NCBI GenBank assembly: GCA_958295805.1
Contig: OY282373.1
Location: forward strand, 2,705,499 to 2,769,498
Direction: 5' to 3'
DNA length: 64,000 bases
Origin: an uncultured Nitrospirales bacterium
GTDB lineage: Bacteria; Nitrospirota; Nitrospiria; Nitrospirales; UBA8639
Part shown: positions 15,221 through 58,578 of the stretch, in pieces
Layout: each line of letters begins with the position of its first letter
Numbering within the stretch: the stretch's first letter is position 1
Notes under the pieces: generated by a model
Told to the model about the DNA's origin: nothing
Databases searched by the model: none
Seen by the model: the letters and a program-made list of their open reading frames with translations, nothing else
Translations under genes and position numbers: made by a program

Positions 15221-15226
15221 TCCTTG

Positions 15227-15255: not shown

Positions 15256-15258
15256 AGT

Positions 15259-30877: not shown

Positions 30878-31117
30878 ACCCACAGAGTTCAAACATCGGA
30901 AGGGTTTTCAGGGTATGGGGAGCAGAGGGTAACAAAAACCCTACCCCGTCGCAAGACAATGTATAATCCCACTTAACCCTCACTCCGGCACTCTCCCGGC
31001 TAGGGAGAGCTTTGCAAAAATCGTCGTTCCTGGAGATGGTCAGTCATTTGCCGACGGAATAAAGGGCTTGCCCACTCGTACCGCTGGCGGCGAGAACCTG
31101 AAACTCCCTCCCATGTT

Positions 31118-38969: not shown

Positions 38970-39160
38970 GGGCTGGAGACGCGCTGGTTGGGTCAGGCTC
39001 GCTTCGAAGAAACCGGATGAGCAGAAAATGTACCACAGGGATGGACGGCCGACAAGATAATCGTTGAGTGAACGCCCACGCTTGGCAGATTGCCGATTTT
39101 GTATGATGTTCCGCTCTTTGAGTCCAAACGAACGCCATTGCCACACCGTGCGACAGACTG

Positions 39161-39721
39161 ATGCCGCGCATCTTCGACAACATTGAACAGCATCTCCGAA
39201 CGGCCCTGGCCAAAACCATGGCGGTTTCCGACCGAGCATGGATGGACCGCGACGGCAAAAGTGTGACCGAAAGCCAGTTCGAGATTCTGCGGACAGCGGA
39301 ATGCCCGCCCGACGCGCCGGCACTGCCGCGTCACGAGACGCATCACAAACTGGTCAGCGAGGCGACAGAACACGTCGCCCGCGAAGAAAAACAAGTGGGA
39401 GGCCAACTCGGCCGCCCCTCCAGCGCCCGCTTCCGCGCGTATGAACGCCTCAAGCGTTACGCCGAAAGCGTCAAGGACACGCTGTTCGACACTGCGCCAC
39501 TCCATCGCGCCATTGACGACGTCTACCGCCACCCCCTGCGCCAAGCCGCGGTGGATACGTTAAACCGGCAACTGCGCAGCGGCGTCTCCGACGGGGCCCT
39601 TGCCGAGATGGTCATCGCACTCAGAGACGAAGACCGGCTCTGCATCGTACACGGAGAGGAGGAAGCCCAGGAACCGAAGATCATCTGTTCCATGGGCTTA
39701 ATTGGACGGGACGATAGTTGA
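39161..39721 (+). pseudogene. Short ORF, possibly a deletion remnant of a large PLD/helicase-type defence gene
   Basis: The N-terminal 26 aa ([26 protein letters not shown]) resemble, from memory, the start of PLD-domain helicase proteins. The similarity stops abruptly at SDRA. No Shine-Dalgarno sequence. The remainder has no recognisable catalytic motif. Could also be an intact small protein. Confidence 0.3.
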
Positions 39722-39897
39722 AACCCCGTGGGTGAGCAGAGACGACGCGGACTGCGTATATTCCCAAGGATTGAGCACGTCAACGCCCGTCGGCGCAAAG
39801 TCATCAGCGTTTCGAGTCACCACCGTCATCCCGTGAACGAATGCCGTGGCTGCGATGAGCATATCGCGATCCGGGCGTGGGTCGGCACCGGACGCGA
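39698..39897 (-). pseudogene. C-terminal fragment of a PIN-domain (VapC) toxin gene
   Basis: The translation DRDMLIAATAFVHGMTVVTRNADDFAPTGVDVLNPW is the conserved VapC C-terminal third. The N-terminal two thirds are missing and replaced by the 3' end of the SGNH gene. Confidence 0.55.
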
Positions 39898-41667: not shown

Positions 41668-41683
41668 TCGATCTCTCCGCCCG

Positions 41684-41949
41684 TCAGTCCGGCTCGAACG
41701 AACCCGCATACTCGCGCTTGAGCGAGGGGTACTGCTCCGCCTTGCGCAGAAAGCAGTTGCCGATGGCGAGGCAATCAATATCCGTGCCCAGGAAGCAGCG
41801 GAAGGCGTCCGTTGGGGTACAGACGATGGGCTCGCCGCGCACGTTGAAGCTGGTGTTCACGATGACCGGGCAGCCTGTCTTGGCTTTGAAGGCTTCCAGC
41901 AGCGCATGGTAGCAGGGGTTGGTTTCGCAGTCAACGGTCTGCACGCGGG
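41684..41949 (-). pseudogene. Carbamoyltransferase (NodU/CmcH family), C-terminal fragment
   Basis: The translation VQTVDCETNPCYHALLEAFKAKTGCPVIVNTSFNVRGEPIVCTPTDAFRCF is the conserved C-terminal block of the family. It is cut at 41949 by the IS. Confidence 0.8.
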
Positions 41950-43772: not shown

Positions 43773-43917
43773 CGGTCTGCACGCGGGCGGAATAGTCCAC
43801 GTGGGTCCCGTAACAACCATCTTCCCACGATGCCCCGATGTGAGAGAAACACCATGCTTGACCCTTTTGCCTTACTGTATTAGTCTCCTTGGTAAGGAGA
43901 CCTGCCATGATCGTCAA
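43773..43917 (-). pseudogene. Carbamoyltransferase remnant upstream of the IS insertion
   Basis: ...GTHVDYSARVQT joins in frame to VDCETNP... once the IS and one copy of the 15-bp repeat are removed. The gene's N-terminal ~400 codons are absent. Confidence 0.6.
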
Positions 43918-44149
43918 AATTACGTCAAAGCGTCAGGTCACGTTTCCTGCGCGGGTATTGGACACGCTGGGGGTCGGCCCGGGCGACCAACTCGAACTGG
44001 AAGAGGGTTCTGACGGCTTCATTCTGCGGCCTCGGCGGATCGATCCGACTTTCATCCCGCCGCTACGGGACAAGATCGATCCTGACGCCGAACCGATTGA
44101 CATGGAGACGTTCCGAAGTCAGCCCTATGACCCTTCGCTACGGGATTGA
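43907..44149 (+). CDS. AbrB/MazE/SpoVT-type antitoxin (VapB-like)
   Basis: MIVKITSKRQVTFPARVLDTLGVGPGDQLELEE is the swapped-hairpin AbrB motif. RBS TAAGGAGA upstream. Confidence 0.8.
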   Translation: MIVKITSKRQVTFPARVLDTLGVGPGDQLELEEGSDGFILRPRRIDPTFIPPLRDKIDPDAEPIDMETFRSQPYDPSLRD

Positions 44150-44522
44150 CACATCCGTGCTTGTGCGGCTGCTGACCGGCAAACCTCCCGACGCGTTCTC
44201 TTATTGCGAAAAAGCACTGAGAACGTTGGCGGAAAGCGGGGCAGAAATTTTTGCATCGAATCAGGTCATTGGGGAAACCTACGTCACGGTCCAGCACCAT
44301 TATGGCGTGTCCAGAGCCGACGCCCGCGCCAGTCTGCTCTACGTGTTACGCAGTGGACTGGTTGCTCCCCTGAACGGGCACTCCGTTATCGCGGCACTTG
44401 AATCATCTGGCGGCCCGGGGCTGTTCGACCGCTTGATTGCCGACGAGTACTCCCGCGCCGGCATGGAAGTCCTCACGCTGGATCGCAAGATGACCACTCT
44501 GCCCGCAACAAGACGGCTTTAA
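44127..44522 (+). CDS. PIN-domain toxin (VapC-like)
   Basis: Start at MTLRYGIDTSVLVRLL overlaps the antitoxin end. Acidic PIN residues (IDTS, NQVIGET, DRLIA). Confidence 0.75.
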   Translation: MTLRYGIDTSVLVRLLTGKPPDAFSYCEKALRTLAESGAEIFASNQVIGETYVTVQHHYGVSRADARASLLYVLRSGLVAPLNGHSVIAALESSGGPGLFDRLIADEYSRAGMEVLTLDRKMTTLPATRRL

Positions 44523-44544: not shown

Positions 44545-47500
44545 ATGCCCGCCAAGTTCGACAAAAACGCCGTAAGAAGCCACCTGGAGCATTTCGCGCT
44601 CCAAACCCTGTTCATCAAGGAACTCGGCTGGGACCACGGCGGCGCGGACACCGACGCCGCCGTAGGCAGCCAGACGTTTGCGCTGCACGCTATTGCCCAC
44701 AAACGCGGCATGGTCGCCTATCAATGTGTGGCAACATCCGACGACGCTTTCCCGGACCATCCCACCCGCCAGAAGATCGAGCGAATTGTTGCCAAAACCG
44801 TCCGCGAACATCTCATCGTGTACGCCACCCACGACCTGAACTCACAGTGCTGGCAATGGGTCAAGCGCGAGCCGGGCAGCCCGGACCGGACTCGCACACA
44901 CGTCTATAGCCGGGGGCAGTCGGGCGAAGCCTTGATCCAAAAACTGGAGCATCTTGTCTTCACCTCGGACGAGGAAGAAAACGTGACTCTTGTTGATGTG
45001 ACGGGCCGGGTCCGGACGGCCTTCGTGGAGAAAGTCACCAAGGGGTTCTACGACCGGTTCAAAAAGGAGCACTCTGCTTTTCTGACCTTCATTGATGGCA
45101 TCACGAACGTAGCTGACCGCGAATGGTACGCCTCACTGATGCTCAATCGCATGATGTTCATCTACTTCATCCAGAAGCGCGGCTTCCTTGACAACGACCC
45201 AAACTACCTGCGCAACCGCCTGGAACGGGTGCGACGGCAACAGGGGAACGGCAACTTCCACAGCTTCTACCGGCTGTTCCTGCTACGGCTGTTTCACGAG
45301 GGACTTGGCCAACCTGCGGCCGACCGCACCCCGGAATTGGCCACGTTGCTCGGCCGCGTGCCGTACCTCAACGGCGGCCTGTTCGACGTCCACGACCTGG
45401 AGCGCGACAACCTGAACATCCGCATCCCCGACGAAGCCTTCAAGCAAATCTTCGCGTTCTTCGACGCCTATCAGTGGCACCTTGACGACCGGCCGCTCCG
45501 CGATGACAACGAGATCAACCCCGACGTGCTGGGCTACATCTTCGAGAAATACATCAACCAGAAGCAGATGGGCGCCTACTACACCAAGGAGGACATCACC
45601 GGCTACATCAGCCGCAACACCGTCCTGCCGTTCCTGTTCGACCGAACAAAACAGGACTGTTCGATTGCCTTCAAGCCCGGCGGCGGAGTCTGGCGCCTGT
45701 TGGCGGATGACCCGGACCGGTATGTCTACGAAGCCGTCCGTCACGGCGTCACCTATGACGTTCACCAAAAGAAAGCTCTAGCCGAAAAGCGGGAACTGCC
45801 GCCCGAGATCGCCGCGGGGCTGAACGACGTGGCGCAACGCGGCGGTTGGAATCAGCCGGCCCCGCCCGAGTATGCCCTGCCGACCGAGACGTGGCGCGAG
45901 CACGTGGCCCGACGGCAACGCTATGAGGAAATCCGCGCCAAACTCGCCGCGGGCGAGGTCACGTCGATCAACGACCTCATCACCTACAATTTGGACATCG
46001 AACAATTCGCCTTGGATGTGATCGCGGGCAGCGAAGGCCTGGAACTGGTCCGCGCCTTCTGGAAGGCGATGCAGAGCGTCTCCATCCTTGACCCGACGTG
46101 CGGGTCCGGCGCGTTCCTGTTCGCCGCGCTCAACGTCCTGGAGCCGCCTGCCTGGACGCCATGCGTGGCTTCCTCAACGACCTGGAACACTCGAAACGCA
46201 AGTACCGCCCGGAAAAACTCAGCGACTTCCGCAACGTGCTGCACCAAGTCGAAGAACACGCCAGCGAACGCTACTTCGTCCTCAAGTCCATCATCATCAA
46301 CAACCTGTACGGCGTGGACATCATGGAAGAGGCGGTAGAAATCTGCAAACTCCGCCTGTTCCTCAAGCTCGTGGCGCAACTGGACACCTACGACCAGATC
46401 GAACCGCTGCCCGACGTCGACTTCAACGTCCGCGCCGGCAACACGCTGGTCGGCTTCACGTCACTGGAGGAAATACGGAAAGCCTTCACGATGACGGCTG
46501 GCGGTCAGCGCAGAATGCTGTACGCGGAAGACGAAAAAAAGCTGAGACGCATTGAAGAAGAGGCCGAACTCGCCGACCGTGCCTTTCATCAGTTCCGCGC
46601 CATGCAGACCAAGCGCGGCATGAACGCCGGCGCGTTCGCCAGCGCAAAGTCTGATCTACGGAAGCAACTTGATAATTTGCGGAACGAATTGGACGAATAT
46701 TTGTCCGGCGAATACGGCGCTAAAACCGACGACGAAACGGCTTACCAACAATGGCGCAACAGCCACCAGCCGTTTCACTGGTTCGTCGAGTTCTACGGGA
46801 TCATGCACAACGGCGGCTTTGACGTAGTCATCGGGAATCCGCCGTATGTGGAACTCTCTACGACAAACCGACAATATCGACCGAGGAATTTTCTTACTGA
46901 GACGTGCGGAAATCTTTATGCTCTTTGCACCGAGCGGGCATTTACATTGCTACACCAACGGGCTCGGTTCAGTTTTATTGTTCCCCTCAGCGTTCAGACA
47001 ACAGCTAGGATGAACAACCTGCAACAATTGTTTATTCAAGAGAAGCGGCACATCTATCTCAGCACGTTCGATGTGTATCCAAGCAAGCTGTTCGAAGGGG
47101 CGAAACAAAGAATCAGCCTGCTCATATCAACCGAACGCTTCGATAAATCTCGATTCTGGACTACATCCTACAATCGTTGGCGGCCAGAGGAAAGAAACAC
47201 ATTATTTTCAACCCTTCGATATTACCGATCATACTTGGACGAAAATTGTTGCGTGATTCCCAAACTTGGAAACAGGATTGTAGAACAAATTCTCCACAAA
47301 CTGAGCAAGTATGGTTCAGTGTCATACAAGCAAAACCCTGTGGCTCCATCATTCTACGTGCATCGAATTCCATATAACTACGTTAAGGCGTTTGATTTTG
47401 TCCCTTACTTTTGGAGTGAAATTGATGGTCGGAAAAAATCTGAGGACTACAAACCATATCAATTAGACCTGCAAGAGGTGACTGGTTCTTTGCTGGCCGT

Positions 47501-47870
47501 ACTCAACTCAAACCTTTTCTTTTGGTGGTGGTATTCGCTGTTTGAAGGATACCATTGTGGACGTCACGAGATTTTCTCGTTTCCAATCGGCATTCGGCAG
47601 ATGAAGGATGAGATTTGTGAAAATCTTGCTGCTTTCGCAGTGCAACTCATGAAAGATTACAAACAACATAGTGGACGAAAGACAGCCAACTACAAAGCAA
47701 AAGGCAAAGTCGAATACGACGAGTATTATCCCAGGAAATCTAAACCCATCATTGACGAAATCGACCGCGTGCTAGCCAAACACTACGGCTTCACGGACGA
47801 AGAGTTGGACTTCATCATCAACTACGACATCAAGTATCGGATGGGGCGGGAAGACTTGGATCGGGATTGA
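44545..47870 (+). pseudogene. Large gamma-class N6-adenine DNA methyltransferase (Eco57I/type IIG-like), copy 1, frameshifted
   Basis: Two overlapping track ORFs (44545..46338 and 46098..47870) together align end-to-end with the intact paralog at 52027-55353. Motif I is ILDPTCGSGAFL and motif IV is VIGNPPYV. The frame breaks at 46146/46147, where 10 nt present in copy 2 (atgtacgtcg) are missing. Confidence 0.85.
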
Positions 47871-47885: not shown

Positions 47886-48374
47886 ATGGTCAAGAGAACG
47901 GTCTATATCGAAACATCTGTCGTATCCTACCTGACGGCTCGGCCTACGAGCGATTTGCTGGCGGCGGATTGGCAGAAAATCACGGTTGACTGGTGGGAGA
48001 CACGGAGAAATCAATTTGACCTCTATACGTCCGACGTCACGGTTGAAGAGGCCCGTCGGGGTAATCCTGATGCTGGGGCACGCCGTCTCGAAGCGTTGTC
48101 CGGCATTCCGATACTGCCGATCACACAGGCTGCTGTAGGGCTATCGAAGCAACTTTTTCAGGGCGGGGCGCTTCCAGCCAAAGCCGAAAACGATGCCCTG
48201 TACGTTGCCGTATCCGCGGTGCATGGGGTCGATTACTTATTGACTTGAAACTGCCGGCATCTCGATAATGCAGAGCGCAAGCCCATTGTACGGAAGGTTT
48301 GTGCGTTGCACGGGTATATCTGCCCTGAGATCTGTACCCCCCAAGAACTCATGGAAGAACTTGAATGTGTCTGA
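47886..48374 (+). pseudogene. PIN-like toxin-family gene interrupted by an in-frame TGA
   Basis: MVKRTVYIETSVVSYLTARPTSDLL...DALYVAVSAVHGVDYLLT*NCRHLDNAERKPIVRKVCALHGYICPEICTPQELMEEL. The stop at 48246-48248 sits where this family has a conserved Trp (LLTWNC), and the frame stays open to 48374. Confidence 0.65.
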
Positions 48375-48585
48375 CGAAATCATCGAGGAGTTGTGGCGAA
48401 TCAAAGACGAAATAGCCCGCGAACATGGATACGACGTCGGATCGCTCGCCGCCTATCTCCAAAGCAAGGAGCAGACGGAGGGACGGCAAGTGGTGGATTT
48501 GCAATCCCTGAAGAAGGCTGCCAGACAAGACGAATCGCCGCCACCCTCATGTTCCGGAGCTTTCCGGTCAAAGGGAAGTTCATGA
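48361..48585 (+). CDS. Small hypothetical protein (antitoxin-like partner of the PIN-like gene)
   Basis: Starts at TTG 48361 or GTG 48367 (MSDEIIEELWRIKDEIAREHGYD...). Overlaps the end of the PIN-like frame and overlaps the next gene by ATGA. Confidence 0.4.
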   Translation: MNVSDEIIEELWRIKDEIAREHGYDVGSLAAYLQSKEQTEGRQVVDLQSLKKAARQDESPPPSCSGAFRSKGSS

Positions 48586-48782
48586 AGCTGCGTGTTGCTC
48601 AAGAAGCTGACGCGCTCTACCTCCGCCTCGACGAGTCCGCCATCATCAACTCCGAAGAAGTTTCGCCGGGCGTCGTACTCGACTACAACGATGCAAACGA
48701 AGTGGTCGGCATAGAACTGCTCCACCTCTCGAAACGCTCCTCCACGCTCAACCTCTCTGCCCTGCAATTTGAAACGACGTAA
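48582..48782 (+). CDS. DUF2283-family small protein
   Basis: MKLRVAQEADALYLRLDESAIINSEEVSPGVVLDYNDANEVVGIELLHLSKR matches the DUF2283 pattern (ADALYIRL...GVILDYD...VGIEIL). Confidence 0.75.
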   Translation: MKLRVAQEADALYLRLDESAIINSEEVSPGVVLDYNDANEVVGIELLHLSKRSSTLNLSALQFETT

Positions 48783-48866
48783 CCGCCAGAACCCCATTCA
48801 CTTCTGACAGGCCGGGGCCGTGCGGCTTCCTACGGAGTTCGTCTGCGGGATTCGTCGGGTCAAAAA

Positions 48867-49022
48867 CTCGCACCGCCGGTGCGAGAAATTGGGGATTTGT
48901 CAAAAGTGCAACCATTGGTTGCACTCATTCAATGGGGTCTCCATCCTGTCGTTGCTCTCAAGCTGATGCGGCAGTTTTTGTGGACTATCGGGAAAAGGAA
49001 AAACTCCAACCACTGGTTGGAG
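48867..49022 (+). promoter_or_regulatory. Three 19-nt perfect palindromes (9-bp arms, 1-nt centre) upstream of the DprA-like gene
   Basis: A is ctcgcaccgccggtgcgag (48867-48885), B is gtgcaaccattggttgcac (48906-48924), and C is ctccaaccactggttggag (49004-49022). Each is preceded by an A-run (caaaaa, caaaa, gaaaaa). C contains the GGAG that lies 7 nt before the TTG start at 49030. Confidence 0.55.
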
Positions 49023-49029
49023 TAATGAG

Positions 49030-49683
49030 TTGAGTCAAGCATTGGGAATGGATCCTGAGCATCAAACGCTGTTAAGGCCCGGCGCTTCCGACTATCCGGC
49101 GGTGTTGCGGCGTTGCTCCGAGGATGGGCGTCCGCTTGCCGTCATGGTACGGGGCAACCTCGGCGTGCTTGATGTACCGCTGCTCGGGTTCTTTTGCTCC
49201 GTGCGCTCCCCCGGTGACGTGATTCTCAAAACTTACGACTTGGCCAAGACGCTGCGCCATGCCGACGTGACGATCATCGGCGGGTTCCAGTCGCCGATGG
49301 AAAAAGAGTGCCTGGACGTTCTGTTGCGGGGCACGGCGTCCGTCGTCGTCTGTCCGGCCCGGGGATTCAATCACATGCGAACCCCGAAAAACTGGAAGCC
49401 GCCCATAGCCGAAGGCCGCCTGTTGCTCCTCTCGTTCTTCGACGGCAACGTCCGCCGTCCCACCACGGCCCTGGCCGCCAAGCGCAACGCCTACGTCGCC
49501 ACCCTGGCCAACCGCCTCCTCATCGCCCACGCTGAACAAGACAGCAAAACCGAAACGTTGTGCAGGGACGCCCTGACCCAAGGCAAGCAGGTCTTCACCC
49601 TGGACTCCCCAGACAACGCCTCCCTGATCGAACTTGGTGCCCTCCCCGTCGCAGCGGACGACCTCACCGCACTCTTCGCCTAG
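49030..49683 (+). CDS. DprA/Smf-like (SLOG/Rossmann-fold) protein, divergent, no C-terminal DNA-binding extension
   Basis: 217 aa. The order of DprA blocks is preserved: DYPAVL, LLGFFCSVRSPG, IIGGFQSPMEKECLDVLLRG in place of SGxAxGID..AH, VVVCPARGF, RLLLLSFF, KRNAYVATLANRLLIAHAEQDSKTE, GKQVFTL. Start is TTG 49030 or ATG 49048. Confidence 0.65.
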   Translation: MSQALGMDPEHQTLLRPGASDYPAVLRRCSEDGRPLAVMVRGNLGVLDVPLLGFFCSVRSPGDVILKTYDLAKTLRHADVTIIGGFQSPMEKECLDVLLRGTASVVVCPARGFNHMRTPKNWKPPIAEGRLLLLSFFDGNVRRPTTALAAKRNAYVATLANRLLIAHAEQDSKTETLCRDALTQGKQVFTLDSPDNASLIELGALPVAADDLTALFA

Positions 49684-49740
49684 GGCCTGTTCATACGAAT
49701 GCAACGCCTCGAAGATACGCACGAACATGATGAACCCCTC

Positions 49741-49845
49741 TCCGCTCTCTGTAGCTGCGCCATCTCATGGCGCCGAGGGGACCATGCCGGATGCGAAGCG
49801 GCGTTGGCTCTCCGCTCTTCTGTAGCGGCGCCATCTCATGGCGCC
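49741..49845. repeat. Two copies of the REP-like element tccgctct(c/t)ctgtagcNgcgccatctcatggcgcc
   Basis: Copies at 49741-49774 and 49811-49845. Each contains the hairpin ggcgccat-ctc-atggcgcc (8-bp stem). A related copy lies at 15227-15255. Confidence 0.8.
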
Positions 49846-50026
49846 CGTCGTGGTATTCCAAACACTCTCACCGACCCATCTCGGGCTAGGCAGGGAGGCG
49901 AGATAAGACATGTCCCTGCCTCCGAGCAGGGATCACGCAACGACGAACCACGGGACGGCAATCAAGTCCATTCAATAAGTCATCGTGCCAACGGGCACAA
50001 AAGAACGCGGTTCGTTCCTTGCCTTA

Positions 50027-50055
50027 TTGAGAGAACCAAAGCCGGTTCATATAAT
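50027..50055 (+). promoter_or_regulatory. Candidate sigma70 promoter for rmuC (TTGAGA-17 nt-TATAAT)
   Basis: TTGAGAgaaccaaagccggttcaTATAAT, followed by GGAGGA and the rmuC ATG 24 nt downstream of the -10 box. Confidence 0.45.
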
Positions 50056-50078
50056 GTAACGAAACGGAGGATCGACCA

Positions 50079-51302
50079 ATGGAATGGATAATCGGCGGGA
50101 CTATCGGATTGCTTATCGGCGGCACGGTCTGCTGGTTCGTTCAGGAATTTCGGACCAGAAGCAAATTGGACAAGGAGTCGGCCAAACACGAGGTGGAAAT
50201 GGCCGGGTTGCAGGCACGTCTAGAGACTGCCGACAACGCCCAACAGATTATCGAGTCGGCGAAAACGCAAATGGGTGAAACATTCAGAGCGGCCGCCGCC
50301 GATGCATTGAGTGGTAACAACAAACAGTTTTTGAGCCTGGCCAACGAAAATTTTGACAAGACGATGGAATCTGCTAAAGGCGAGTTTCACCGGCGATACC
50401 AGCAGTTTCAGGATATGGTGAAACCACTGGCGGAAAACTATAGCAAGCTCAATCCGCAGATTGATTCACTGATTACGCAGGTGCAGGCCGCTAATGCGGA
50501 AACCAACAAATTGTCTGCTGCGCTTACCGACAATCGTCGCGTCGGGAATTGGGGCGAGATTCAATTGCGACGGGTGGTTGAGCTTGCCGGTATGACTGAT
50601 TATTGCGACTTTATTGAGCAGGCGACCGGCGGCAGTTCACAAGACCGTCCCGATTTGATTGTGACGCTGCCGGAGCGGCGTGCCGTTGTCGTGGACGCCA
50701 AAGCGTCCACCGCCGCGTACATGGAAGCGCAGCAGGCGGAGGATGACGAAACCGCCAATGTTGCCTGGAAGAAACACGCTGCCGCGTTGAGACGCCAAGT
50801 CACCGAGTTGGCCCGTAGAAATTATGGCCAGAAAACTGAAGGCGCTCTTGATTTTGTCGTGATGTTCGTGCCGGGAGACCAGTTTCTCTCTGCGGCCCTG
50901 AACACCGACCGCGATCTGTTGGAATATGCGATGGACCGCCGGGTTGCCATCGCTACGCCGGCGTCGCTGATTGCGATGCTGTGGGCCATCAACAACGGTT
51001 GGCAACAGTTCCGCCTTGCCCAGGATGCCCGGCAAATCAAAGAAGTGGGCGAAGACATGCACAAGCGGATGCTCAAATTCATCAGTGACTATCAGAACGT
51101 CGGCAAGGAATTGAAAAGCGCCGTGACCGCTTTCAACGAATCTATCGGTTCGTTCGATGAGCGAATTGTCCCTAAAGGACGACAGTTCTCCAAAATGGTT
51201 ACGGGCGATGATCGGTTCGAGATTCCGCATGCGATTGACCCGTCGCTGCGCACTTCCCGCTACGCCACACCCCCCGCTTCGACCACTGACGGCGACGACT
51301 AG
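50079..51302 (+). CDS. rmuC: DNA recombination protein RmuC
   Basis: 407 aa with an N-terminal TM helix, a long coiled coil, and a nuclease-like core (NWGEIQLRRVVELAGM...DLIVTLPERRAVVVDAKAS...FVVMFVPGDQF). Confidence 0.88.
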   Translation: MEWIIGGTIGLLIGGTVCWFVQEFRTRSKLDKESAKHEVEMAGLQARLETADNAQQIIESAKTQMGETFRAAAADALSGNNKQFLSLANENFDKTMESAKGEFHRRYQQFQDMVKPLAENYSKLNPQIDSLITQVQAANAETNKLSAALTDNRRVGNWGEIQLRRVVELAGMTDYCDFIEQATGGSSQDRPDLIVTLPERRAVVVDAKASTAAYMEAQQAEDDETANVAWKKHAAALRRQVTELARRNYGQKTEGALDFVVMFVPGDQFLSAALNTDRDLLEYAMDRRVAIATPASLIAMLWAINNGWQQFRLAQDARQIKEVGEDMHKRMLKFISDYQNVGKELKSAVTAFNESIGSFDERIVPKGRQFSKMVTGDDRFEIPHAIDPSLRTSRYATPPASTTDGDD

Positions 51303-51436
51303 CGTCTTGGGTCGACGAATTCAGACAAGTGATCTCATCTTCTCAAATAGATGACCGTACGCATGTCGTCGTTCACACCACCTACCATCGGGCTCTTGGA
51401 ATTCAGGCAAGAAAGTAAAGGCGGGGAACGAGTGAC

Positions 51437-51706
51437 TTACGCCACCCGTCTTGCTTCGGCAGCCTTGGCAAGATCATACGTCGCCTGCACGTTCAGCCAC
51501 AGCTTCGGCGACGTACCCAGAATGTCGGCCAGATCGAGGGCGGCCTCGGCGGTGATGCCTCGCTTGCCTCGTATCAGCTCATTCAGGCGCGCTCGGCTCC
51601 AGCCGATCTTTTGGGCGAACGCCGCTTGGGTTATTCCCATGGGATCGAGAAATTCCTCACGCAGCATTTCACCGGGATGAAAAGGATTTTCTGGTTGTTG
51701 ATCCAC
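51437..51706 (-). CDS. higA: HigA-family antitoxin (XRE-type HTH)
   Basis: HPGEMLREEFLDPMGITQAAFAQKIGWSRARLNELIRGKRGITAEAALDLADILGTSPKLWLNVQ. GTG start with AGGAGG upstream. Confidence 0.85.
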   Translation of the reverse strand: MDQQPENPFHPGEMLREEFLDPMGITQAAFAQKIGWSRARLNELIRGKRGITAEAALDLADILGTSPKLWLNVQATYDLAKAAEARRVA

Positions 51707-51720
51707 TGCTTTTGCCTCCT

Positions 51721-51926
51721 TTAGTGATAGTCGATGATTTGCACGTCATAGGCCTACCCCTTACTCCATTGAAACCAGAACGTTGCCAAATGTCTGAATC
51801 ACGTCCGCATGTTATCGGAACCCGATAATAATGACAAAATCGGCAATGGCTTGCGTGAACGGATGCACGTTCGCGTTGACTGCCAGGCGTGGTCCATCTG
51901 CCGAATGAATCCGTTGTCTTCATCAT
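51721..51926 (-). pseudogene. Decayed higB (RelE/ParE-fold killer) gene
   Basis: One frame reads WFQWSKG*AYDVQIIDYH*, the HigB C-terminal motif interrupted by TAG. The upstream part is only readable in another frame. The stop lies 14 nt before the higA start, as in higBA operons. Confidence 0.45.
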
Positions 51927-52026
51927 TTCACTTTTTCAGAGAATTTGTATTATTCTTGAGACAAAGGATTGTAGATTGAGGCTTTGTGGAGGACAACAAG
52001 TCGATGGTCAATCCGAGGAATTCCCG

Positions 52027-55000
52027 ATGCGGACACTCAACGGAACCAACGTCACGCAACATCTGAAGAACTTCGATCTCCGCACGCTGTTCATTGAAGA
52101 ACTGGGCTGGGACCAGGGCGGAACCGATACCGACGCCACCGTGGGCAACCAAACGTTCACGTTGCAGGCCATTGCACACGCACGCGGCATGGTGGCCTAT
52201 CAATGCGTGGCGGACGTTGACGATGTTTTCCCCGATCATCCGACCCGCCGGAAGATCGAGAGAGCCGTTGCCAAAACCGTCCGCGAACACGTCATCGTCT
52301 ACCCTTCACGCGACAGGAACGCCCTGTACTGGCAATGGGTGAAGCGCGAGCAGGGGAGGCCTGATCGATCTCACGCGTCCATTTATCACCTGGACCACCC
52401 GGACGACGCGATGATCCAGAAGTTGAGGCATCTTGTCTGTACGCCGGACGAGGAAGATAACAACCCGAGCCTCGCCGATGGATCGGACCGAATGCTCGCG
52501 GCCTTCGACGTTGAGAAAGTCATCAGGCAGTTCTACGACCGTTTGAAAAAACAGCGCGACGGGTTTCAGAGATTCATCAAAGGCATCCCGACCCTTGCAG
52601 ACAGGGAATGGTACGCCTCGCTGATGCTGAACCGGATCATGTTTCTCTACTTCATCCAGAAGCGGGGCTTCCTTGACGGCGACCCGGACTATCTGCGCAA
52701 CCGCCTTGAACGCATGCAATGGACACGGGGGAAGGACCGCCTCCAACGGTTCTACCGGCTGTTTCTCCTGAAACTGTTCCACGAGGGGTTGAGTCGGCCA
52801 GAGGCCGAGCGAGCACCGGAATCAGCGGAATTGCTCGGCACGGTCCCCTATCTCAACGGCGGCCTGTTCGACGTACACGACCTGGAGCGCGACAACCCGG
52901 ACATCCGCATCCCGGACGAAGCCTTCGTGAAAATTTTCGCCTTCTTCGACGCCTATCAGTGGCATCTTGACGACCGGCCGCTCCGCAACGACAACGAGAT
53001 CAATCTCGACGTGCTGGGCTCCATCTTTGAGAAGTACGTCAACCAGAAGCAGATGGGCGCCTACTACACCAAGGAGGACGTCACCGGTTACATCAGCCGC
53101 AACACCGTCCTGCCGTTCCTGTTCGACCGTGTGAAACAGGATTGTTCGAGTGCGTTCAAGCCCGGCGGCGGAGTGTGGCGGCTGCTGGCGGACGACCCTG
53201 ACCGGTACGTCTACGAAGCCGTCCGTCACGGTGTCACCTATGACGTTCACAAACAGGAAGCCCTGGCCGACAGACGCGAATTGCCGCCCGAGGTCGCCGC
53301 GGGGCTGCACGACGTGGCGCAACGCGGCGGCTGGAACGAAGCGGCCCCGTCCGAGTACGCCCTGCCGACCGAGACGTGGCGCGAGCACGTGGTCCGCCGG
53401 CAACGTTATGAGGAAATCCGCGCCAAACTCGCCGCGGGCGAGGTGACGTCGATCAACGACCTCATCACCTACAATTTGGACGTCGAACAATTCGCCCAGG
53501 ACGTGATCGCGGGCAGCGAAGGCCCGGAACTGGTCCGCGCCTTCTGGAAGGCACTCACCACCGTCTCCATCCTCGACCCGACCTGCGGGTCCGGCGCGTT
53601 TCTGTTGGCCGCGATGAACGTGCTGGAGCCGATGTACGTCGCCTGCCTGGACGCCATGCGGGAACACCTTGATGACCTGACGCGCTCGACGCACACGCAC
53701 GGCCCGGAGCATCTGAACGATTTTCGCACGATACTTGACCGCGTGGCGGCACATGCCGGCGAACGCGACTTCATCCTCAAGTCCATCATTGTCAACAACG
53801 TGTACGGCGTGGACATCATGGACGAGGCCGTGGAACTCTGCAAACTGCGCCTGCTCCTGAAACTGTTCGCGGAGACGAGGGCCGACCGGATCGAACCACT
53901 GCCCGACGTGGCCCTCAACGTCCGTGCGGGCAACACGCTCGTGGGTTTCACGTCGATCAAGGAAATACAGGAAGCGTTCGTCATGACCCAAGGCGACCAG
54001 CGGAGAATGCTCTACCCCGAAGACGAGACCGAACTGACGCGCATTAAAACGCGCGCCGAAGCCGCCGACCTGGCCTTTCGCCATTTCCGCGACGTGCAGG
54101 CCGAGCACGGCGTGGGTGCAGGCGCGTTCGCCCACGCGAAGTCGGATCTGCGGGAACGACTCGACGACCTGCGCAACGAATTCAACGAATATTTGGCCGG
54201 CAACTACGGCGTCGAGACCGCTGACGAAGGGGCCTACCGGCAATGGCGTCACAGCCACCGGCCTTTCCATTGGTTCATCGAATTCTACGGCGTCATGAAC
54301 GGCGGCGGGTTCGACGTGCTCATCGGGAATCCGCCTTACCTGAAATACAGTCAGGTGAAGAATCATGACACCGTCAAGGGCTACGCCACCCGATCCTGCG
54401 GCAATCTGTTCGCATTGATGATGGAACGAAGCACGCGCCTCTCTCATTCGGAAAGCTTCTTGAGCATGATGGTCCCGCTGAGTGGACACAGCACAAAGAA
54501 AATGCTCCCGTTGATGAACACGTTTTATAAGTCGTTCACGTCGTGCCACCTGTTCAACATCAGCGCCGACGCCCATCCAGGCGTTTTGCTTCCCGGAGCC
54601 AGATTCAGGTTGGCGATCTTTATCACGTCAAATCGTGGAAAGGGAATCTTCACGACTGGGTATTCACGATGGTACGCAGCGGAGGGGGGCCATCTGTTCA
54701 GCCTCTTGCAGTACACGCCCATCGGGACCATCCACTATCCAACCGCCATTCCAAAGGTCTCAAGTCCTCTGCATCTACAGATTTTGCAGAAACTGTACGC
54801 GTATCAAGAAAGCCTGCACGATTCGCTCAGTTCCAGACCGTTGTCTGATCGGGTGCTGCTCTATCATTCATCACCGGTTAATTGGATTCGAGCGCATACG
54901 ACGACGCCATATTTTTACAACCAGCGAGACGGTGAAAAAACGTCCGTCAAGTTGAAACCTCTCTACCAGAACAACGGGACCGAGAGTTTACAGGGAATCC

Positions 55001-55353
55001 TCTGTAGCACGGTGTTCTTTATCTGGTGGCTGTCTCATTCGGACTGCTGTGACTTGAACCGACAGGAGATCGAGACGTTTCCCAAGTGTCGAAGTGCGAA
55101 ATTCGTCTCGCTGTCTCACCGGTTAGAAGATGACATGCGGGTTCATGCAAAACGACATCGTTATCCCGACAAGACGACGGGAAGAATTGAATACGACGAA
55201 TTTGTTATGAAAATGTCCAAACCGCTCATAGACGACGTTGATGCCGTCCTGGCCGAGCACTACGGTTTCACGGACGAGGAATTGGATTTCATCATCAACT
55301 ACGATATCAAGTACCGCATGGGCTTGAACAATCTGAGCAGTGACGGGGAATGA
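52027..55353 (+). CDS. Large gamma-class N6-adenine DNA methyltransferase (Eco57I/type IIG-like), copy 2, intact
   Basis: 1,108 aa from ATG 52027 (GAGGAA upstream). Motif I is ILDPTCGSGAFL, motif IV is LIGNPPYL, and PYLNGGLFD and GAYYTKEDVTGYI helper motifs are present. Paralog of 44545-47870 except for residues after NPPY. Confidence 0.9.
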   Translation: MRTLNGTNVTQHLKNFDLRTLFIEELGWDQGGTDTDATVGNQTFTLQAIAHARGMVAYQCVADVDDVFPDHPTRRKIERAVAKTVREHVIVYPSRDRNALYWQWVKREQGRPDRSHASIYHLDHPDDAMIQKLRHLVCTPDEEDNNPSLADGSDRMLAAFDVEKVIRQFYDRLKKQRDGFQRFIKGIPTLADREWYASLMLNRIMFLYFIQKRGFLDGDPDYLRNRLERMQWTRGKDRLQRFYRLFLLKLFHEGLSRPEAERAPESAELLGTVPYLNGGLFDVHDLERDNPDIRIPDEAFVKIFAFFDAYQWHLDDRPLRNDNEINLDVLGSIFEKYVNQKQMGAYYTKEDVTGYISRNTVLPFLFDRVKQDCSSAFKPGGGVWRLLADDPDRYVYEAVRHGVTYDVHKQEALADRRELPPEVAAGLHDVAQRGGWNEAAPSEYALPTETWREHVVRRQRYEEIRAKLAAGEVTSINDLITYNLDVEQFAQDVIAGSEGPELVRAFWKALTTVSILDPTCGSGAFLLAAMNVLEPMYVACLDAMREHLDDLTRSTHTHGPEHLNDFRTILDRVAAHAGERDFILKSIIVNNVYGVDIMDEAVELCKLRLLLKLFAETRADRIEPLPDVALNVRAGNTLVGFTSIKEIQEAFVMTQGDQRRMLYPEDETELTRIKTRAEAADLAFRHFRDVQAEHGVGAGAFAHAKSDLRERLDDLRNEFNEYLAGNYGVETADEGAYRQWRHSHRPFHWFIEFYGVMNGGGFDVLIGNPPYLKYSQVKNHDTVKGYATRSCGNLFALMMERSTRLSHSESFLSMMVPLSGHSTKKMLPLMNTFYKSFTSCHLFNISADAHPGVLLPGARFRLAIFITSNRGKGIFTTGYSRWYAAEGGHLFSLLQYTPIGTIHYPTAIPKVSSPLHLQILQKLYAYQESLHDSLSSRPLSDRVLLYHSSPVNWIRAHTTTPYFYNQRDGEKTSVKLKPLYQNNGTESLQGILCSTVFFIWWLSHSDCCDLNRQEIETFPKCRSAKFVSLSHRLEDDMRVHAKRHRYPDKTTGRIEYDEFVMKMSKPLIDDVDAVLAEHYGFTDEELDFIINYDIKYRMGLNNLSSDGE

Positions 55354-55396
55354 CGCCATGCCGCCTGAAGGGCAATCGAATGGTTCCTTGCTTTAG

Positions 55397-55512
55397 CTGG
55401 AGGACGTGGAACGCGCCGTTGCCGAAGGGGCGCGTGACGAGTGATCGCGCTTGATACCAACGTTCTGGTTCGTTATCTGGTGACATTGCTGGACCCGTCA
55501 ACGCGGACTTAA
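55397..55512 (+). pseudogene. vapBC stub (last 15 codons of an antitoxin plus first ~17 codons of a PIN toxin)
   Basis: ...LEDVERAVAEGARDE* overlaps by GTGA with VIALDTNVLVRYLV, the conserved PIN N-terminus. The frame then leaves the family pattern and stops after 24 codons. Confidence 0.5.
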
Positions 55513-55513
55513 C

Positions 55514-56728
55514 CTAAGAAGCCGTCTCCATCGTTCGTTTGATAAATTGTCCGAACAGGGGAACGGCAAAGCAATATTTCCCATGTCTATTCTTAAAGAT
55601 AAGGCCTGCATCGCTCAATCGAGCCAGCATCTGATTTACCTGGCTATGACTGATTGGTTTTTGGAGTTGAGACCGTGAGGCCTCAGCTATTTCATTTCCC
55701 GTGAATTCACTCTCGCTTGTCGTCAGATTGGCAATAATCCAAAGCAAGTCCTTTTGTCGTTCCGTGACCTTTGCCCATCTTCCCGCATAAAAATCCGAGT
55801 CTAATTTAGAAATAATCGCTTCGGCGGGGACAATTGTATTTTCCCCGGCTTCAATTTGTTGCAACCACGTGTCATACGCTTCTTTGCAGATAAATTGGAT
55901 AAAATAGGGATATCCTCCCGACATCCCCACAATGCGATTGACTGATTTCTCGTTAAATCTGATAGGACATTCTGCATCTTGAATCGGTTTCAGGATCGCG
56001 TCTTTTGTATCTTCCTCCGACAGTCTCTTCAAAAATAAGACGTGAAACATTCTTTCAGAATACGTTCGTGCCTCTACGAGTTTAGGGAACAACGTCGGCA
56101 GGCCCGTCAATACCAACAGATAACTCAAATTTTTTCGCTGTAACGATTGGAAAACTTCTAAGATGAGCGATAAGGGAAATTGCTCTTTTTTGGCTTGGTC
56201 CGACATGTTTTGTGCTTCATCATAGGCAAAAATTATCCCTTTCTTCTGAAGCTGAGGTAGAAATGCCCAAATATATTCAAGAACGTATTTGAGCTTGTCT
56301 GAGACGAGCCCGGGAGTTTCATCATAGAGTCTTCGCAAAAATGGATAAGCGAGTGTGTCTTTCGCTTGCGTCTCAATAAAACCAGCAGATTCTGGAGCGG
56401 GCCGCGTCACCGTAATTCGGGACGTGATTACCGACATATCTCTCAGGATTCTGGTTGCCACGCTTTCTTCACTGATACTGACCGATTCAGAAAGGTCGTT
56501 TCCTACCCACAGCCAACCTTCTTGGATGGCAATCGGCTTGAGAGATTCTAATAGCACGGTTTTTCCTACCCCTCGAAGCCCAGTAATGACGAGATTTTCT
56601 AAAATGGTCGTTTGCCGTAACAGCCGTCTGAATTCTATCTCCTCTTCTTTACGCCCTGCGAGATAGGGAGGCATATGACCTGCTCCTGGCTTAAACGGGT
56701 TGGTAAAAGGTGGATGCTTTATTTCCAT
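55514..56728 (-). CDS. AAA-type ATPase with C-terminal winged-helix (Orc1/Cdc6-like, 'archaeal ATPase' family)
   Basis: 404 aa. FTNPFKPGAGHMPPYLAGRKEEEIEF, Walker A GLRGVGKTVLL, Walker B IIFAYDEAQ. The C-terminal segment QVNQMLARLSDAGLIFKNRHGKYCFAVPLF looks like a wHTH. Visibly AT-rich relative to its neighbours. Confidence 0.75.
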   Translation of the reverse strand: MEIKHPPFTNPFKPGAGHMPPYLAGRKEEEIEFRRLLRQTTILENLVITGLRGVGKTVLLESLKPIAIQEGWLWVGNDLSESVSISEESVATRILRDMSVITSRITVTRPAPESAGFIETQAKDTLAYPFLRRLYDETPGLVSDKLKYVLEYIWAFLPQLQKKGIIFAYDEAQNMSDQAKKEQFPLSLILEVFQSLQRKNLSYLLVLTGLPTLFPKLVEARTYSERMFHVLFLKRLSEEDTKDAILKPIQDAECPIRFNEKSVNRIVGMSGGYPYFIQFICKEAYDTWLQQIEAGENTIVPAEAIISKLDSDFYAGRWAKVTERQKDLLWIIANLTTSESEFTGNEIAEASRSQLQKPISHSQVNQMLARLSDAGLIFKNRHGKYCFAVPLFGQFIKRTMETAS

Positions 56729-56777
56729 ATTCGTTTTTTACTAAAAAAATTCAATTAAATTTATTTATTGCAGTACT

Positions 56778-56865: not shown

Positions 56866-58578
56866 TCAGCGTGGTTTTTTGCGGGATTTGGCCGATTTTG
56901 ATCTTGAGGACGGGACGACGAAGGCTTGGCCGCGGAGTTTGCGATGGTAGGTAATGGCGAAGCGATGCGCTTCGTCCCGGATGCGTTGGACGAATCGAGA
57001 GGCGGGCGACGTGGGAGACAGGATGAGCGGTTCGCGACTCCCGGGCGAATAGAGTCGTTCTTCTTTGTCCCCTTTGGCTTTGGCTAACCCGATAACGGAA
57101 AGACGGCGAAGGCCGAGAGCCCGTAAGGCGTCCACCGCGGCTCCCAACTGTCCCATGCCGCCGTCAATCAGGATGAGATCCGGAAGCGGCAGGGCTTTCT
57201 CGTTCCGGGGACCAAGTGTTCCACCGTACCGGCGCTTGACGACTTCATGCATGCTCGCAACGTCATTCGCCCCTTCGACCGTCTTGATACGAAACCGCCG
57301 GTAATCGGCTTTCTTCATTGTTCCGTCTTCCCAGACCACCATTGAGGCCACGGAATGAGTGCCCATGGTATTGGAAATATCAAACCCTTCTACCCGACTC
57401 GGCACGGTTGCCAATCCCAGCAGACGTTGCAACGCCTCGGTTTCCTTTTGTTCCGCCGCCCTTTTGCACAGATGATCGTCAAGAGCCGCAGCCGCATTAT
57501 CTTGGGCCAACTGGAGCAGCCGGGCTTTCACGCCGCGTTCGGGAGTCAGAACCCGAACCGCCCGACCCTTCTTCTGGCTGAGCCAGCGTTGAATCAACTC
57601 GTGATCGGACAATGGCTGAGGCACGAACAATTCCTTGGGCGGCATGGTTTCCTTATTATAAAATTGCTCAATGGCCGACCGAATCAGTTCATCATCGGAC
57701 GCCTCTTTCGTATCAGCCCAAAAGAAGTCTTTGCGGGCAATCAACAAACCGCCACGCACGAACAAGAGTTGCAAGTCCGCCGCCGTCCCCATCCTGGCCA
57801 AGCCGATGACGTCCTGATCCACCGGCCCGATTTGCGCCACGCGCTGTTTTTCCAAGGTCTTGGAGACGTTCATCATGCGATCCCGCAGTCGTGCCGCTTC
57901 TTCAAAGGCTTGCCGGTCGGCGGCGGCTTCCATGTCTTTGCGCAATCCATCCAGCAATTCCTTGTCCCGCCCCTCAAGAAAGCATCGAACCTGTTTCACG
58001 ATGCGATGATAGTCTTCCTGCGATTGGTTGCCGGTACAGGGAGCCATGCAGCGTTTGATTTCAAATTCCAGACAGGCCCGGTCCGCGGTGCCATTGATGT
58101 CGATCGTACACGTGGCCAGCGGGAACACTTTTTTGATGACTTTCAAGGTGTCCCGAAGCGCCCCTGCCGGCACGTACGGACCAAAATACAGCGCCCCATC
58201 GTTCGTCACGCGACGCACAATCGAGAGACGTGGAAAATTGTCCTTCACCGGTAATCGGAGGTAGGGATAGTGCTTGTCGTCACGCAGCACGACGTTGAAC
58301 CGCGGACGATGGCGTTTGACCAGATTGCTTTCCAGCAGAAGCGCCTCCAATTCAGACGTGGTGACGAGCGTTTCAACGTCATGAACCAGGGTCATCAACA
58401 CGCGCGTTTTGGGACTCGGGTCGTTGCCTTTTTGGAAATATGAGCGCACCCGGTCCGCCAACACGCGGGCTTTTCCGACGTAGAGGATTTCGCCGTCCTT
58501 CCCTTTCATGAGGTACACGCCCGGTTGATCGGGCAGATGATCCAGACTGGATTGAAGCTGACTGGATGGCTGAATCAC
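56866..58578 (-). CDS. uvrC: Excinuclease ABC subunit C
   Basis: 570 aa with a GIY-YIG N-terminus (GVYLMKGKDGEILYVGKA), a UvrBC-interaction region, and an Endo V-like domain with C-terminal HhH. Confidence 0.96.
   Translation of the reverse strand: MIQPSSQLQSSLDHLPDQPGVYLMKGKDGEILYVGKARVLADRVRSYFQKGNDPSPKTRVLMTLVHDVETLVTTSELEALLLESNLVKRHRPRFNVVLRDDKHYPYLRLPVKDNFPRLSIVRRVTNDGALYFGPYVPAGALRDTLKVIKKVFPLATCTIDINGTADRACLEFEIKRCMAPCTGNQSQEDYHRIVKQVRCFLEGRDKELLDGLRKDMEAAADRQAFEEAARLRDRMMNVSKTLEKQRVAQIGPVDQDVIGLARMGTAADLQLLFVRGGLLIARKDFFWADTKEASDDELIRSAIEQFYNKETMPPKELFVPQPLSDHELIQRWLSQKKGRAVRVLTPERGVKARLLQLAQDNAAAALDDHLCKRAAEQKETEALQRLLGLATVPSRVEGFDISNTMGTHSVASMVVWEDGTMKKADYRRFRIKTVEGANDVASMHEVVKRRYGGTLGPRNEKALPLPDLILIDGGMGQLGAAVDALRALGLRRLSVIGLAKAKGDKEERLYSPGSREPLILSPTSPASRFVQRIRDEAHRFAITYHRKLRGQAFVVPSSRSKSAKSRKKPR

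Follow-up and report, generated by a model that had tools for sequence, protein, structure and literature searches.

Genes of the leuS–uvrC locus and their recurrence

We analyzed a 64,000-nucleotide (nt) stretch of contig OY282373.1 from an uncultured Nitrospirales bacterium, the whole of which is referred to as the window, and focused on an island between leuS and uvrC that carries two methylase genes, a gene for a DprA-like protein, and the remnant of a helicase-nuclease gene. The features of this island are listed in Table 1, and the loci used for comparison are denoted by L numbers. The initial annotation of this DNA had described two direct methylase copies with a conserved part of about 2.3 kb, which was borne out by an alignment with 79.6% nt identity over 2,285 nt, in addition to a conserved 3′ tail of 134 nt, the longest exact run being 41 nt; the target-recognition region of about 1 kb gave no alignment between the copies. 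For the inter-copy segment of about 4.1 kb, it had listed a PIN gene, DUF2283, palindromes, the DprA-like gene, and RmuC with its own promoter, all of which were found again, and a plus-strand higA open reading frame (ORF) at 51351–51680, which turned out to be spurious, the true higA being on the minus strand. Furthermore, the locus was found to reach well upstream of the segment singled out at that time, with a VapBC pair, an ISNCY transposase gene, and the helicase remnant.

The DprA-like protein is a stand-alone DprA Rossmann-fold domain. It was matched by PF02481 at 44.3 bits against a cut-off of 29.6 and by the PADLOC PsyrA model at 2.6e-16, and the Rossmann-fold (RF) domain covered it wholly, with neither the SAM nor the C-terminal domain being present; the canonical DprA equivalog TIGR00732 scored 42.2 bits against a cut-off of 191. 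A PDB sequence search gave a best E value of only 0.16. An AlphaFold2 model with a predicted local distance difference test score (pLDDT) of 92 had DprA (3uqz, 3maj, and 4ljk) and ShosA (8zva) as the top Foldseek matches at a TM-score of about 0.75 and 18–22% identity, with an E value of 1e-12 against the DprA structures, and its CSxR and RN motifs aligned with GSR and RNR, respectively, of pneumococcal DprA (3uqz). The family is tight (65–70% identity and about 210 amino acids [aa]) and has more than 1,300 database matches.

Both methylase copies carry Eco57I and MmeI_Mtase domains (Pfam; 5.9e-20 and 1.5e-6, respectively), and the translation has motif I (DPTCGSGAFL) ahead of motif IV (NPPY) and a C-terminal target-recognition domain (TRD) on the same chain. 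Copy 2 was matched by the PADLOC type IIG model PDLC03628 at 2.6e-293 over profile positions 3–1096 of 1100, and copy 1, which is read as two overlapping ORFs, was matched in its halves at 4e-192 and 1.5e-147. The N-terminal domain, modeled by AlphaFold2 over residues 1–210 (pLDDT 83), had no significant fold match, the best PDB matches having E values of at least 0.014 and TM-scores of at most 0.26, and the methylase had no match in a PDB sequence search.

The helicase is represented in the window by a remnant in which residues 1–26 are fused to residues of about 750–907, about 720 codons having been deleted internally, and which has the same ends as the intact helicase of L027. Intact relatives consist of a PLDc_2/NgoFVII-type HKD domain, SNF2, and Helicase_C, and were matched by defense models only generically or partially ("HKD+Snf2," 2e-51; DrmD, 1.3e-34; HmaA, 2.4e-18). 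None of the three proteins, helicase, methylase, and DprA-like, reached an NCBIfam family cut-off.

To place these genes in context, homologs of the DprA-like protein, initially annotated at 49030–49683, were collected by scanning one genome per GTDB species, resulting in 80 DprA-anchored loci from groups including Latescibacterota, Binatia, Nitrospirales, Vicinamibacterales, Entotheonella, Chloroflexota, Spirochaetia, Gemmatimonadota, and Gammaproteobacteria. The co-occurrence with the methylase family that the initial annotation had raised was evident across at least 10 phyla, together with an HKD(PLD)-SNF2 helicase that had gone unnoticed: within 10 kb upstream on the same strand, the methylase was present in 61 of the 80 loci and the helicase in 51. 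The gene order in the first contexts was the PLD-SNF2 helicase (1119 aa), the methylase (1148 aa), an MTaX1-HNH gene (10/80 loci), an optional DUF2283 gene, and the DprA-like gene. A clustering of ORFs made without prior queries, over 10 kb on either side of the anchor in the 80 loci, recovered the same three-family core, with no other family recurring with the DprA-like gene at a comparable rate. The flanking genes differ between phyla, being uvrC in Nitrospirales and OTCase/GlyRS in L001–L004, indicating that the cassette moves as a unit. The order of leuS, cassette, and uvrC-fadL is common to other Nitrospirales loci (L027 and L051); L027 has a complete cassette, with uvrC about 5 kb further on, and L051 has the cassette tail alone (DUF2283 and DprA-like). 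Exact-sequence look-ups of the window DprA-like protein and of P0001 found no contig.

The association was also determined from the side of the methylase, using 80 independent metagenome loci (52–67% identical) from soil, freshwater, sediment, and peat, for which the N-terminal part of the methylase served as the anchor. The helicase was adjacent in 73 of these loci. The DprA-like gene followed the methylase in 13 of the 20 contigs with at least 5 kb of downstream sequence and in 19 of the 31 with at least 3 kb, starting no more than 132 nt past the methylase end in 10 cases, and the seven well-covered loci without it had no recurrent downstream substitute gene. Taken together, the helicase and the methylase are the core of the cassette, and the DprA-like gene is a frequent accessory.

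The slots between these genes are often occupied. In the window, VapBC is embedded between the helicase remnant and methylase copy 1, and this slot holds a VapC homolog in 15 and its antitoxin in 21 of the 80 DprA-anchored loci. The slot between the methylase and the DprA-like gene elsewhere holds AbiJ-like (AbiJ_NTD4 + DUF7014) or GmrSD_N genes, examples of embedded genes being found at L061 8810–9754, L043 8886–9680, L026 8594–9307, and L059 8694–9890, and it acts as a hotspot in which defense genes become embedded.

A relative of the cassette is present on plasmid pSYSX of Synechocystis PCC 6803 (L173), where an ortholog of the helicase (52% identity) is accompanied by a pair of a hypothetical gene and VapC and by slr6050 (M.Ssp6803IV), to which the methylase is 43–53% identical; this cassette is without a DprA-like gene. 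The methylation of GA(m6A)GGC was tentatively assigned to slr6050, the knockout of which would not segregate (PMC6105098), which is the outcome anticipated in the presence of an active restriction partner. The toxin-antitoxin (TA) pair at L173 8350–8983 lies in the helicase–methylase slot, and its VapC is not detectably similar to that of the window (43889–44522); this slot seems to have been filled independently in Synechocystis and the window. Directly after the Synechocystis cassette, the minus strand of L173 12787–15408 carries a ubiquitin-like conjugation cluster with DUF6527, a ThiF-family E1, an E2/UBC, and a multiubiquitin-domain gene.

Decay and accretion at the window locus

Table 1. 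Features of the leuS–uvrC island, with positions in the window.
Feature	Position	Strand	Basis or remark
leuS	36327-39323	minus	left chromosomal boundary of island
HKD(PLD)-SNF2 helicase-nuclease remnant	39161-39721	plus	tblastn of L002 helicase against window
4.07-kb strain-specific insertion	39756-43828	unstranded	absent from conspecific L174
626-aa ORF, function unknown	39898-41778	minus	inside 4.07-kb insertion
ISNCY transposase	42022-43329	plus	NCBIfam transpos_ISNCY_2, 459.5 bits against cut-off of 250
VapB, MazE-type antitoxin	43889-44149	plus	Pfam
VapC, PIN toxin	44097-44522	plus	Pfam
Methylase copy 1	44545-47870	plus	type-IIG-like gamma N6-adenine methyltransferase with TRD; pseudogene
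PIN-domain toxin pseudogene	47886-48374	plus	Pfam PIN, 1.3e-4
Small PIN-partner ORF, 72 aa	48367-48585	plus	overlaps PIN stop codon
DUF2283 small protein, 66 aa	48582-48782	plus	Pfam, 2.2e-14
Three palindromes, 19-21 nt, A-run before each	48867-49023	unstranded	sequence and scan
Stand-alone DprA Rossmann-fold-domain protein, 211 aa	49048-49683	plus	PF02481, 1.6e-11
REP-like palindrome, two copies, 17 nt, GCGCCATCTCATGGCGC	49757-49773, 49828-49844	unstranded	sequence
RmuC	50079-51302	plus	PF02646, 1.2e-77
Last 38 codons of 552-aa gene	51302-51415	plus	tblastn
HigA antitoxin (HTH_3)	51437-51706	minus	Pfam, 3e-11
Methylase copy 2	52027-55353	plus	intact, 1108 aa; TRD differs from copy 1
AAA ATPase, AAA_16/ATPase_2-like	55514-56728	minus	convergent to copy 2; Pfam matches all sub-threshold
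uvrC	56866-58578	minus	right chromosomal boundary of island; Pfam

The two methylase copies are not recent duplicates, because they belong to different clades of the methylase family: in a tree built from the 540 conserved aa of the N-terminal part, copy 1 grouped with L009 copy 1, and copy 2 grouped separately with the L009 and L010 copies. Orthologs were closer than paralogs (84% and 83% versus 75% and 68% aa identity), copy 1 being 84% identical to L009 copy 1, copy 2 being 83–89% identical to the L009/L010 copies, and the window copies being 75% identical to each other, with 48% in the C-terminal half. Thus, there is no sign of concerted evolution or gene conversion since the species split, and copy 2 is a second member of the family, from another clade and with another TRD. 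Between copy 1 of the window and that of L009, the identity falls from 84% over the N-terminal half to 50% over the C-terminal half; TRDs have been replaced on an evolutionary time scale, which is ordinary for such methylases.

Copy 1 is disrupted by a 10-bp deletion near 46150, as located by alignment with copy 2 and the L009 ortholog. A programmed frameshift site in the methylase was considered and rejected, since the disruptions are at many different positions across loci. None of the 120 best database homologs of the methylase N-terminal region (P0241–P0360) was full length (460–951 aa versus about 1,100–1,150 aa), which could be owing to frequent pseudogenization, long-read frameshift errors, or a bias of the listing. 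It was also observed that the last 25–40 or so methylase residues, with the conserved ...FTDEELDFIINYDIKYRMG tail, stand alone downstream of embedded genes such as MTaX1-HNH (L002 7705–7791; also in L003–L005, L013, L019, L022, L025, and L046). These fragments look like insertion scars and would be consistent with an entry of cassettes through recombination at this 3′ tail.

A comparison with a conspecific contig, L174, which is 96.5–98.5% identical to the window at the nt level over 19 kb, indicated how the locus differs between strains. In L174, the helicase (1123 aa), copy 1 (1112 aa), and higB are all intact, and both the 4.07-kb ISNCY/626-aa block and the AAA gene are missing. L174 is collinear with the window at 96.5–97.4% over both methylase copies, including both TRDs, and the spacer, and the structural variants seen represent decay and insertion rather than recombination between the copies. 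Copy 2 of L174 is split (675 + 413 aa), which may be an artifact; uvrC is also present there as two ORFs (14007–15651), which suggests frameshift errors in the L174 assembly. The window locus is accordingly a half-decayed copy of the cassette plus accreted genes: the helicase has an internal deletion, copy 1 a frameshift, and the PIN gene a nonsense mutation, and higB is lost; the DprA-like gene, copy 2, and RmuC are intact under purifying selection, with ratios of nonsynonymous to synonymous substitution rates (dN/dS) of about 0.3, 0.32, and 0.3, respectively, the value for uvrC being 0.1–0.2. Such differences between conspecific strains (helicase deletion, frameshift, insertion-sequence insertion, and gene gain) leave orphan methylases that could act epigenetically.

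With respect to the small genes between the copies, the nonsense mutation of the PIN gene is a TGG-to-TGA change at codon 121 (48246–48248), a position occupied by Trp in all eight homologs, and a PIN homolog follows the methylase in 11 of the 80 DprA-anchored loci. The 72-aa ORF occurs alongside a PIN homolog in 16 of the 80 and had no family match, and DUF2283 is present in 30, mostly directly upstream of the DprA-like gene. The three palindromes have arms of CTCGCACC-GCC-GGTGCGAG, GTGCAACC-ATT-GGTTGCAC, and CTCCAACC-ACT-GGTTGGAG and look like terminator-like hairpins on the minus strand. The proximal one is kept in L009 and L010, and near-identical palindromes upstream of the DprA-like gene (just upstream of 10001) were found in the distant L033 and L068 only. 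A role as a conserved operator was rejected, as the palindromes are upstream of the DprA-like gene in only 5 of 81 loci and the window shows no enrichment of their core pattern. The other palindrome, GCGCCATCTCATGGCGC, has a third copy at 15237–15253, amounting to three in the window compared with 0.05 expected by chance, and L009 and L010 have one copy each after the DprA-like gene; it appears to be a dispersed repetitive extragenic palindromic (REP)-like or terminator element of the host genome.

RmuC was matched by PF02646 at 261 bits over profile positions 3–284 of 291, and its score against the Escherichia coli equivalog PRK10361 was 116, below the cut-off of 810. Its promoter, TTGAGA-17-TATAAT at 50027–50055, agrees with a sigma-70-like consensus in 11 of 12 positions and is kept in L010. 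RmuC was found at this locus only in the window species (L174), L175, L009, and L010, and in 2 of the 80 DprA-anchored loci, which are those of the closest Nitrospirales relatives only; homologs elsewhere are in unrelated contexts. The possibility that RmuC is a native neighbor of aroE was rejected, since the aroE of L089 is only 38% identical and the proximity is coincidental. Between RmuC and HigA, the two closest sister species, L009 (12112–13770) and L010 (12148–13803), have a conserved 552-aa ORF, 96% identical to each other and with no Pfam match, of which the window retains the end. HigA, which looks like a local addition, is orphaned by a deletion of about 210 bp that removes higB, the latter being intact in L009 and L174.

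The initial annotation had also reported a convergent Orc1/Cdc6-like ATPase after copy 2. A convergent AAA gene is indeed present there, and its AAA_16 and ATPase_2 matches are all below the Pfam cut-offs. It lies on a strain-specific AT-rich insertion at 55533–56765 (GC content of 0.458 versus about 0.58 nearby), occurs in none of the 80 DprA-anchored loci, and is absent from L009, L010, and the conspecific L174. In Latescibacterota (L002–L004 8894–10222; L012–L021), the gene that directly follows the DprA-like gene, in convergent orientation, encodes an AAA_14/DUF4143 ATPase (PADLOC candidate PDC-S01, 1e-55), and its relative position matches that of the unrelated AAA ATPase of the window. 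RmuC, HigBA, and the AAA ATPase are thus unrelated neighbors accreted at a hotspot. In the upstream part of the island, the 626-aa ORF had no match to defense families. Further upstream in the window, tRNA-His (30802–30876) adjoins a 2-kb stretch (31000–33000) with an unusually high GC content of 0.65 and a strong negative GC skew.

Interpretation and rival explanations

We interpret the founding element of the island as a helicase–methylase–DprA-like restriction-type cassette, beside which RmuC, HigA, and the AAA ATPase were accreted at the leuS–uvrC hotspot, and estimate the probability of this interpretation to be about 70%. The cassette is widespread and apparently unnamed so far. Its genes lie on one strand in the order of the HKD(PLD)/SNF2 helicase, the gamma-class N6-adenine methyltransferase of 1,100 aa with its TRD, and, in about 60% of cases, the stand-alone DprA-fold protein, with the slots between them repeatedly gathering TA and small defense genes. 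In the proposed mechanism, the methylase would mark host sites and, as the recognition subunit, would license the ATP-driven helicase-nuclease to cut unmarked DNA, in a manner similar to a two-gene Type ISP/III enzyme. The DprA-like protein would bind single-stranded DNA (ssDNA) and most likely either recruit RecA to repair collateral self-damage or sense ssDNA intermediates, as is reported for its structural relative ShosA.

This arrangement is not captured by the current PADLOC models, which label the methylase family as stand-alone type IIG and would list the DprA-like gene only as an incomplete PsyrTA/ShosTA match. The fixed pairing with the HKD-SNF2 helicase and the frequent presence of the DprA-like gene suggest a distinct ATP-dependent system that is mislabeled by current tools. 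If this is true, a DprA-fold protein in a restriction cassette would connect restriction to RecA and ssDNA handling, and, to our knowledge, such a link has so far been found for DprA-like proteins only in the ShosTA TA system. The open-access papers that were searched contained nothing specific on a DprA/SLOG link to restriction-modification (R-M) with an HKD-SNF2 helicase. We put forward only tentatively the more extensive proposal of an undescribed three-component restriction-type immune system, in which the DprA-like protein would couple restriction to ssDNA and RecA, through either the repair of self-inflicted damage or the sensing of incoming ssDNA, and the gaps would be conserved places for TA and abortive-infection (Abi) cassettes to dock. 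With respect to the two-gene core, slr6050 and the helicase of Synechocystis pSYSX represent a tractable model.

Several points weigh against the cassette interpretation. The DprA-like gene is absent from about 35–40% of the helicase–methylase loci, making it an accessory and not an obligate part, and it persists without the helicase and methylase in 19 of the 80 DprA-anchored loci, such as L051. Moreover, purifying selection acts on it in three genomes with no helicase match in reach (10 kb upstream in L009/L010), which is more in line with a function of its own than with one that depends strictly on the helicase. The methylase may have a nuclease of its own in the N-terminal domain, as in a true type IIG enzyme. 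As for the samples, the DprA-anchored search used strict peptide patterns, resulting in a bias to close relatives and to metagenome-assembled genomes (MAGs) of sponge and coral symbionts, and the frameshifts in long-read MAGs may partly be assembly errors, in line with the split uvrC of L174. Finally, restriction by the cassette is predicted from sequence and by analogy, as we also infer the cooperation of helicase and methylase and the role of the DprA-like protein.

The initial annotation had offered two explanations of its own, a methylase-based module with a built-in specificity-switching or recombination function and a plain accretion of unrelated genes. The idea of a methylase-based module held for the DprA-like gene and failed for RmuC and the AAA ATPase, given the counts above, and that of plain accretion applies to RmuC, HigA, and the AAA ATPase but not to the DprA-like gene, which is tied to the methylase and helicase. 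A pure accretion, in which the DprA-like protein would also be unrelated and work alone, perhaps in repair or as an orphan factor akin to an antitoxin, is the most probable of the rivals, and we consider it unlikely. It would account for the DprA-like genes that lack a methylase and have AbiJ-like, GmrSD_N, or housekeeping genes as neighbors, for the 7 of 20 well-covered methylase loci without a DprA-like gene, for a purifying selection that outlasts the loss of the helicase, and for an island that has gathered the unrelated ISNCY, AAA ATPase, HigBA, and RmuC genes. However, it does not readily explain why the order and strand of the helicase, methylase, and DprA-like genes are fixed over many phyla and flanks, with gaps often below 132 nt, or why the DprA-like gene has no other recurrent partner of comparable rate; furthermore, no DprA-like homolog was found in plasmid or phage collections, and hence no independent mobile cassette there.

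The switching function fared worse, no evidence of it having been found, and is the least probable of the readings considered. It would require one methylase copy to be active and the other silent, with the DprA-like protein and RmuC assisting a recombination between the conserved 2.3-kb parts of the copies that transfers TRDs or removes the spacer. The presence of two copies with differing TRDs and conserved flanks, with exact runs of up to 41 nt that are above typical minimal pairing lengths, would be compatible with this, as would the exchange of TRDs on an evolutionary time scale seen in the halves of copy 1 (84% and 50%, window versus L009) and the duplicated methylase 3′ tails beyond embedded genes, which suggest recombination at the conserved tail. 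On the other hand, the overall identity is 79.6%, neither an invertase nor a site-specific recombinase is present, the copies belong to different clades without gene conversion since the species split, and the supposed scaffold copy is broken in the window strain. L174 is collinear throughout, and L009 and L010 keep the spacer. In addition, most DprA-like loci hold a single methylase copy, indicating that the DprA-like protein cannot be there to mediate an exchange between two copies, and RmuC is restricted to 2 of the 80 loci. It is also improbable, in our estimation, that the methylases are single-chain type IIG R-M enzymes with their own N-terminal nuclease, copy 2 being complete alone and the helicase belonging to a separate system. 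The end-to-end match to the PADLOC REase_MTase_IIG model PDLC03628 points in this direction, together with an N-terminal 130-aa model of alpha-beta-beta-beta-alpha-beta topology, which had weak matches (E values of 0.016–0.17) to the SPARDA nuclease domain, Hjc, and a putative restriction endonuclease (PD-(D/E)xK), and the weak HSDR_N similarity given for the Synechocystis methylase (PMC6105098). Against this, the helicase is adjacent in 73 of the 80 methylase-anchored loci, which is too regular for chance, the N-terminal region has no significant fold or sequence match to solved nucleases or to the MmeI nuclease domain, and its invariant residues include no clear D...(D/E)xK triad.

Comparison with known systems

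The cassette was compared with known systems that share some of its parts. The DprA-like protein has the Rossmann-fold domain in common with canonical DprA and with ShosA and PsyrA, the antitoxins of ShosTA and PsyrTA; ShosA is reported to bind ssDNA and RecA and to counter the damage that its toxin does to DNA (PMC12961424). In those systems, a PRTase (ShosT) or RecQ-like (PsyrT) toxin gene is adjacent, whereas none is present in the window or among the recurrent families of the 80 loci, and membership was rejected because this toxin partner is missing.

BREX-related (BR) type 2/Hma systems combine an N-terminal HKD endonuclease and a Swi2/Snf2 helicase with an N6-methyltransferase and embedded defense genes (PMC12839542; PMC11232893). 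However, no family of the DUF499 ATPase or DUF3780 recurs within 10 kb on either side in the 80 loci, and membership was rejected because these partners are missing. The characterized Hma has a 5-methylcytosine (m5C) methylase and a C-terminal NOV_C nuclease, and the cassette helicase matches HmaA at 2.4e-18 only. DISARM class 1 was also rejected, as there were only partial matches to DrmD (1.3e-34) and DrmMI (5e-25) and no further conserved large genes (DrmA, DrmB/DUF1998, and DrmC). The DnmA-YeeB-YeeC system, a relic in Bacillus subtilis and reportedly antiphage in Vibrio crassostreae, consists of an MmeI-like methylase without a restriction endonuclease motif, a superfamily 2 (SF2) helicase, and a third protein (PMC9973331). 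Its order differs, its third gene is of the T5orf172/GIY-YIG type, and its helicase is without HKD, the distinction being made by description and not by homology; membership was rejected because the defining partners are missing.

Phase-variable or shufflon R-M systems have near-identical repeats or a recombinase, whereas the window has copies of 79.6% identity, no inverted repeats, and no recombinase. Type IIG enzymes (MmeI/Eco57I; REBASE M.Ssp6803IV, that is, slr6050) resemble the cassette methylase in the full-length profile match and the Eco57I and MmeI_Mtase domains. However, they act alone, without a separate motor or restriction subunit, in contrast to the cassette methylase, which is paired with a helicase in 73 of 80 (methylase-anchored) and 51 of 80 (DprA-anchored) loci.

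In Type ISP (LlaGI/LlaBIII) and Type III enzymes, a nuclease and an SF2 translocase are joined to a TRD and an N6-adenine methyltransferase of the gamma or beta class. The cassette differs from these enzymes in that its functions are split over two genes instead of being joined in one chain, in the additional DprA-like gene, and in its nuclease, which is an HKD/PLD domain at the helicase N-terminus and not an Mrr or C-terminal PD-ExK domain. A further resemblance lies in the probable target of the Synechocystis homolog, GAAGGC, which is short and asymmetric (PMC6105098). With the same set of parts as the cassette, the Type ISP and Type III enzymes are the likeliest mechanistic analogs.

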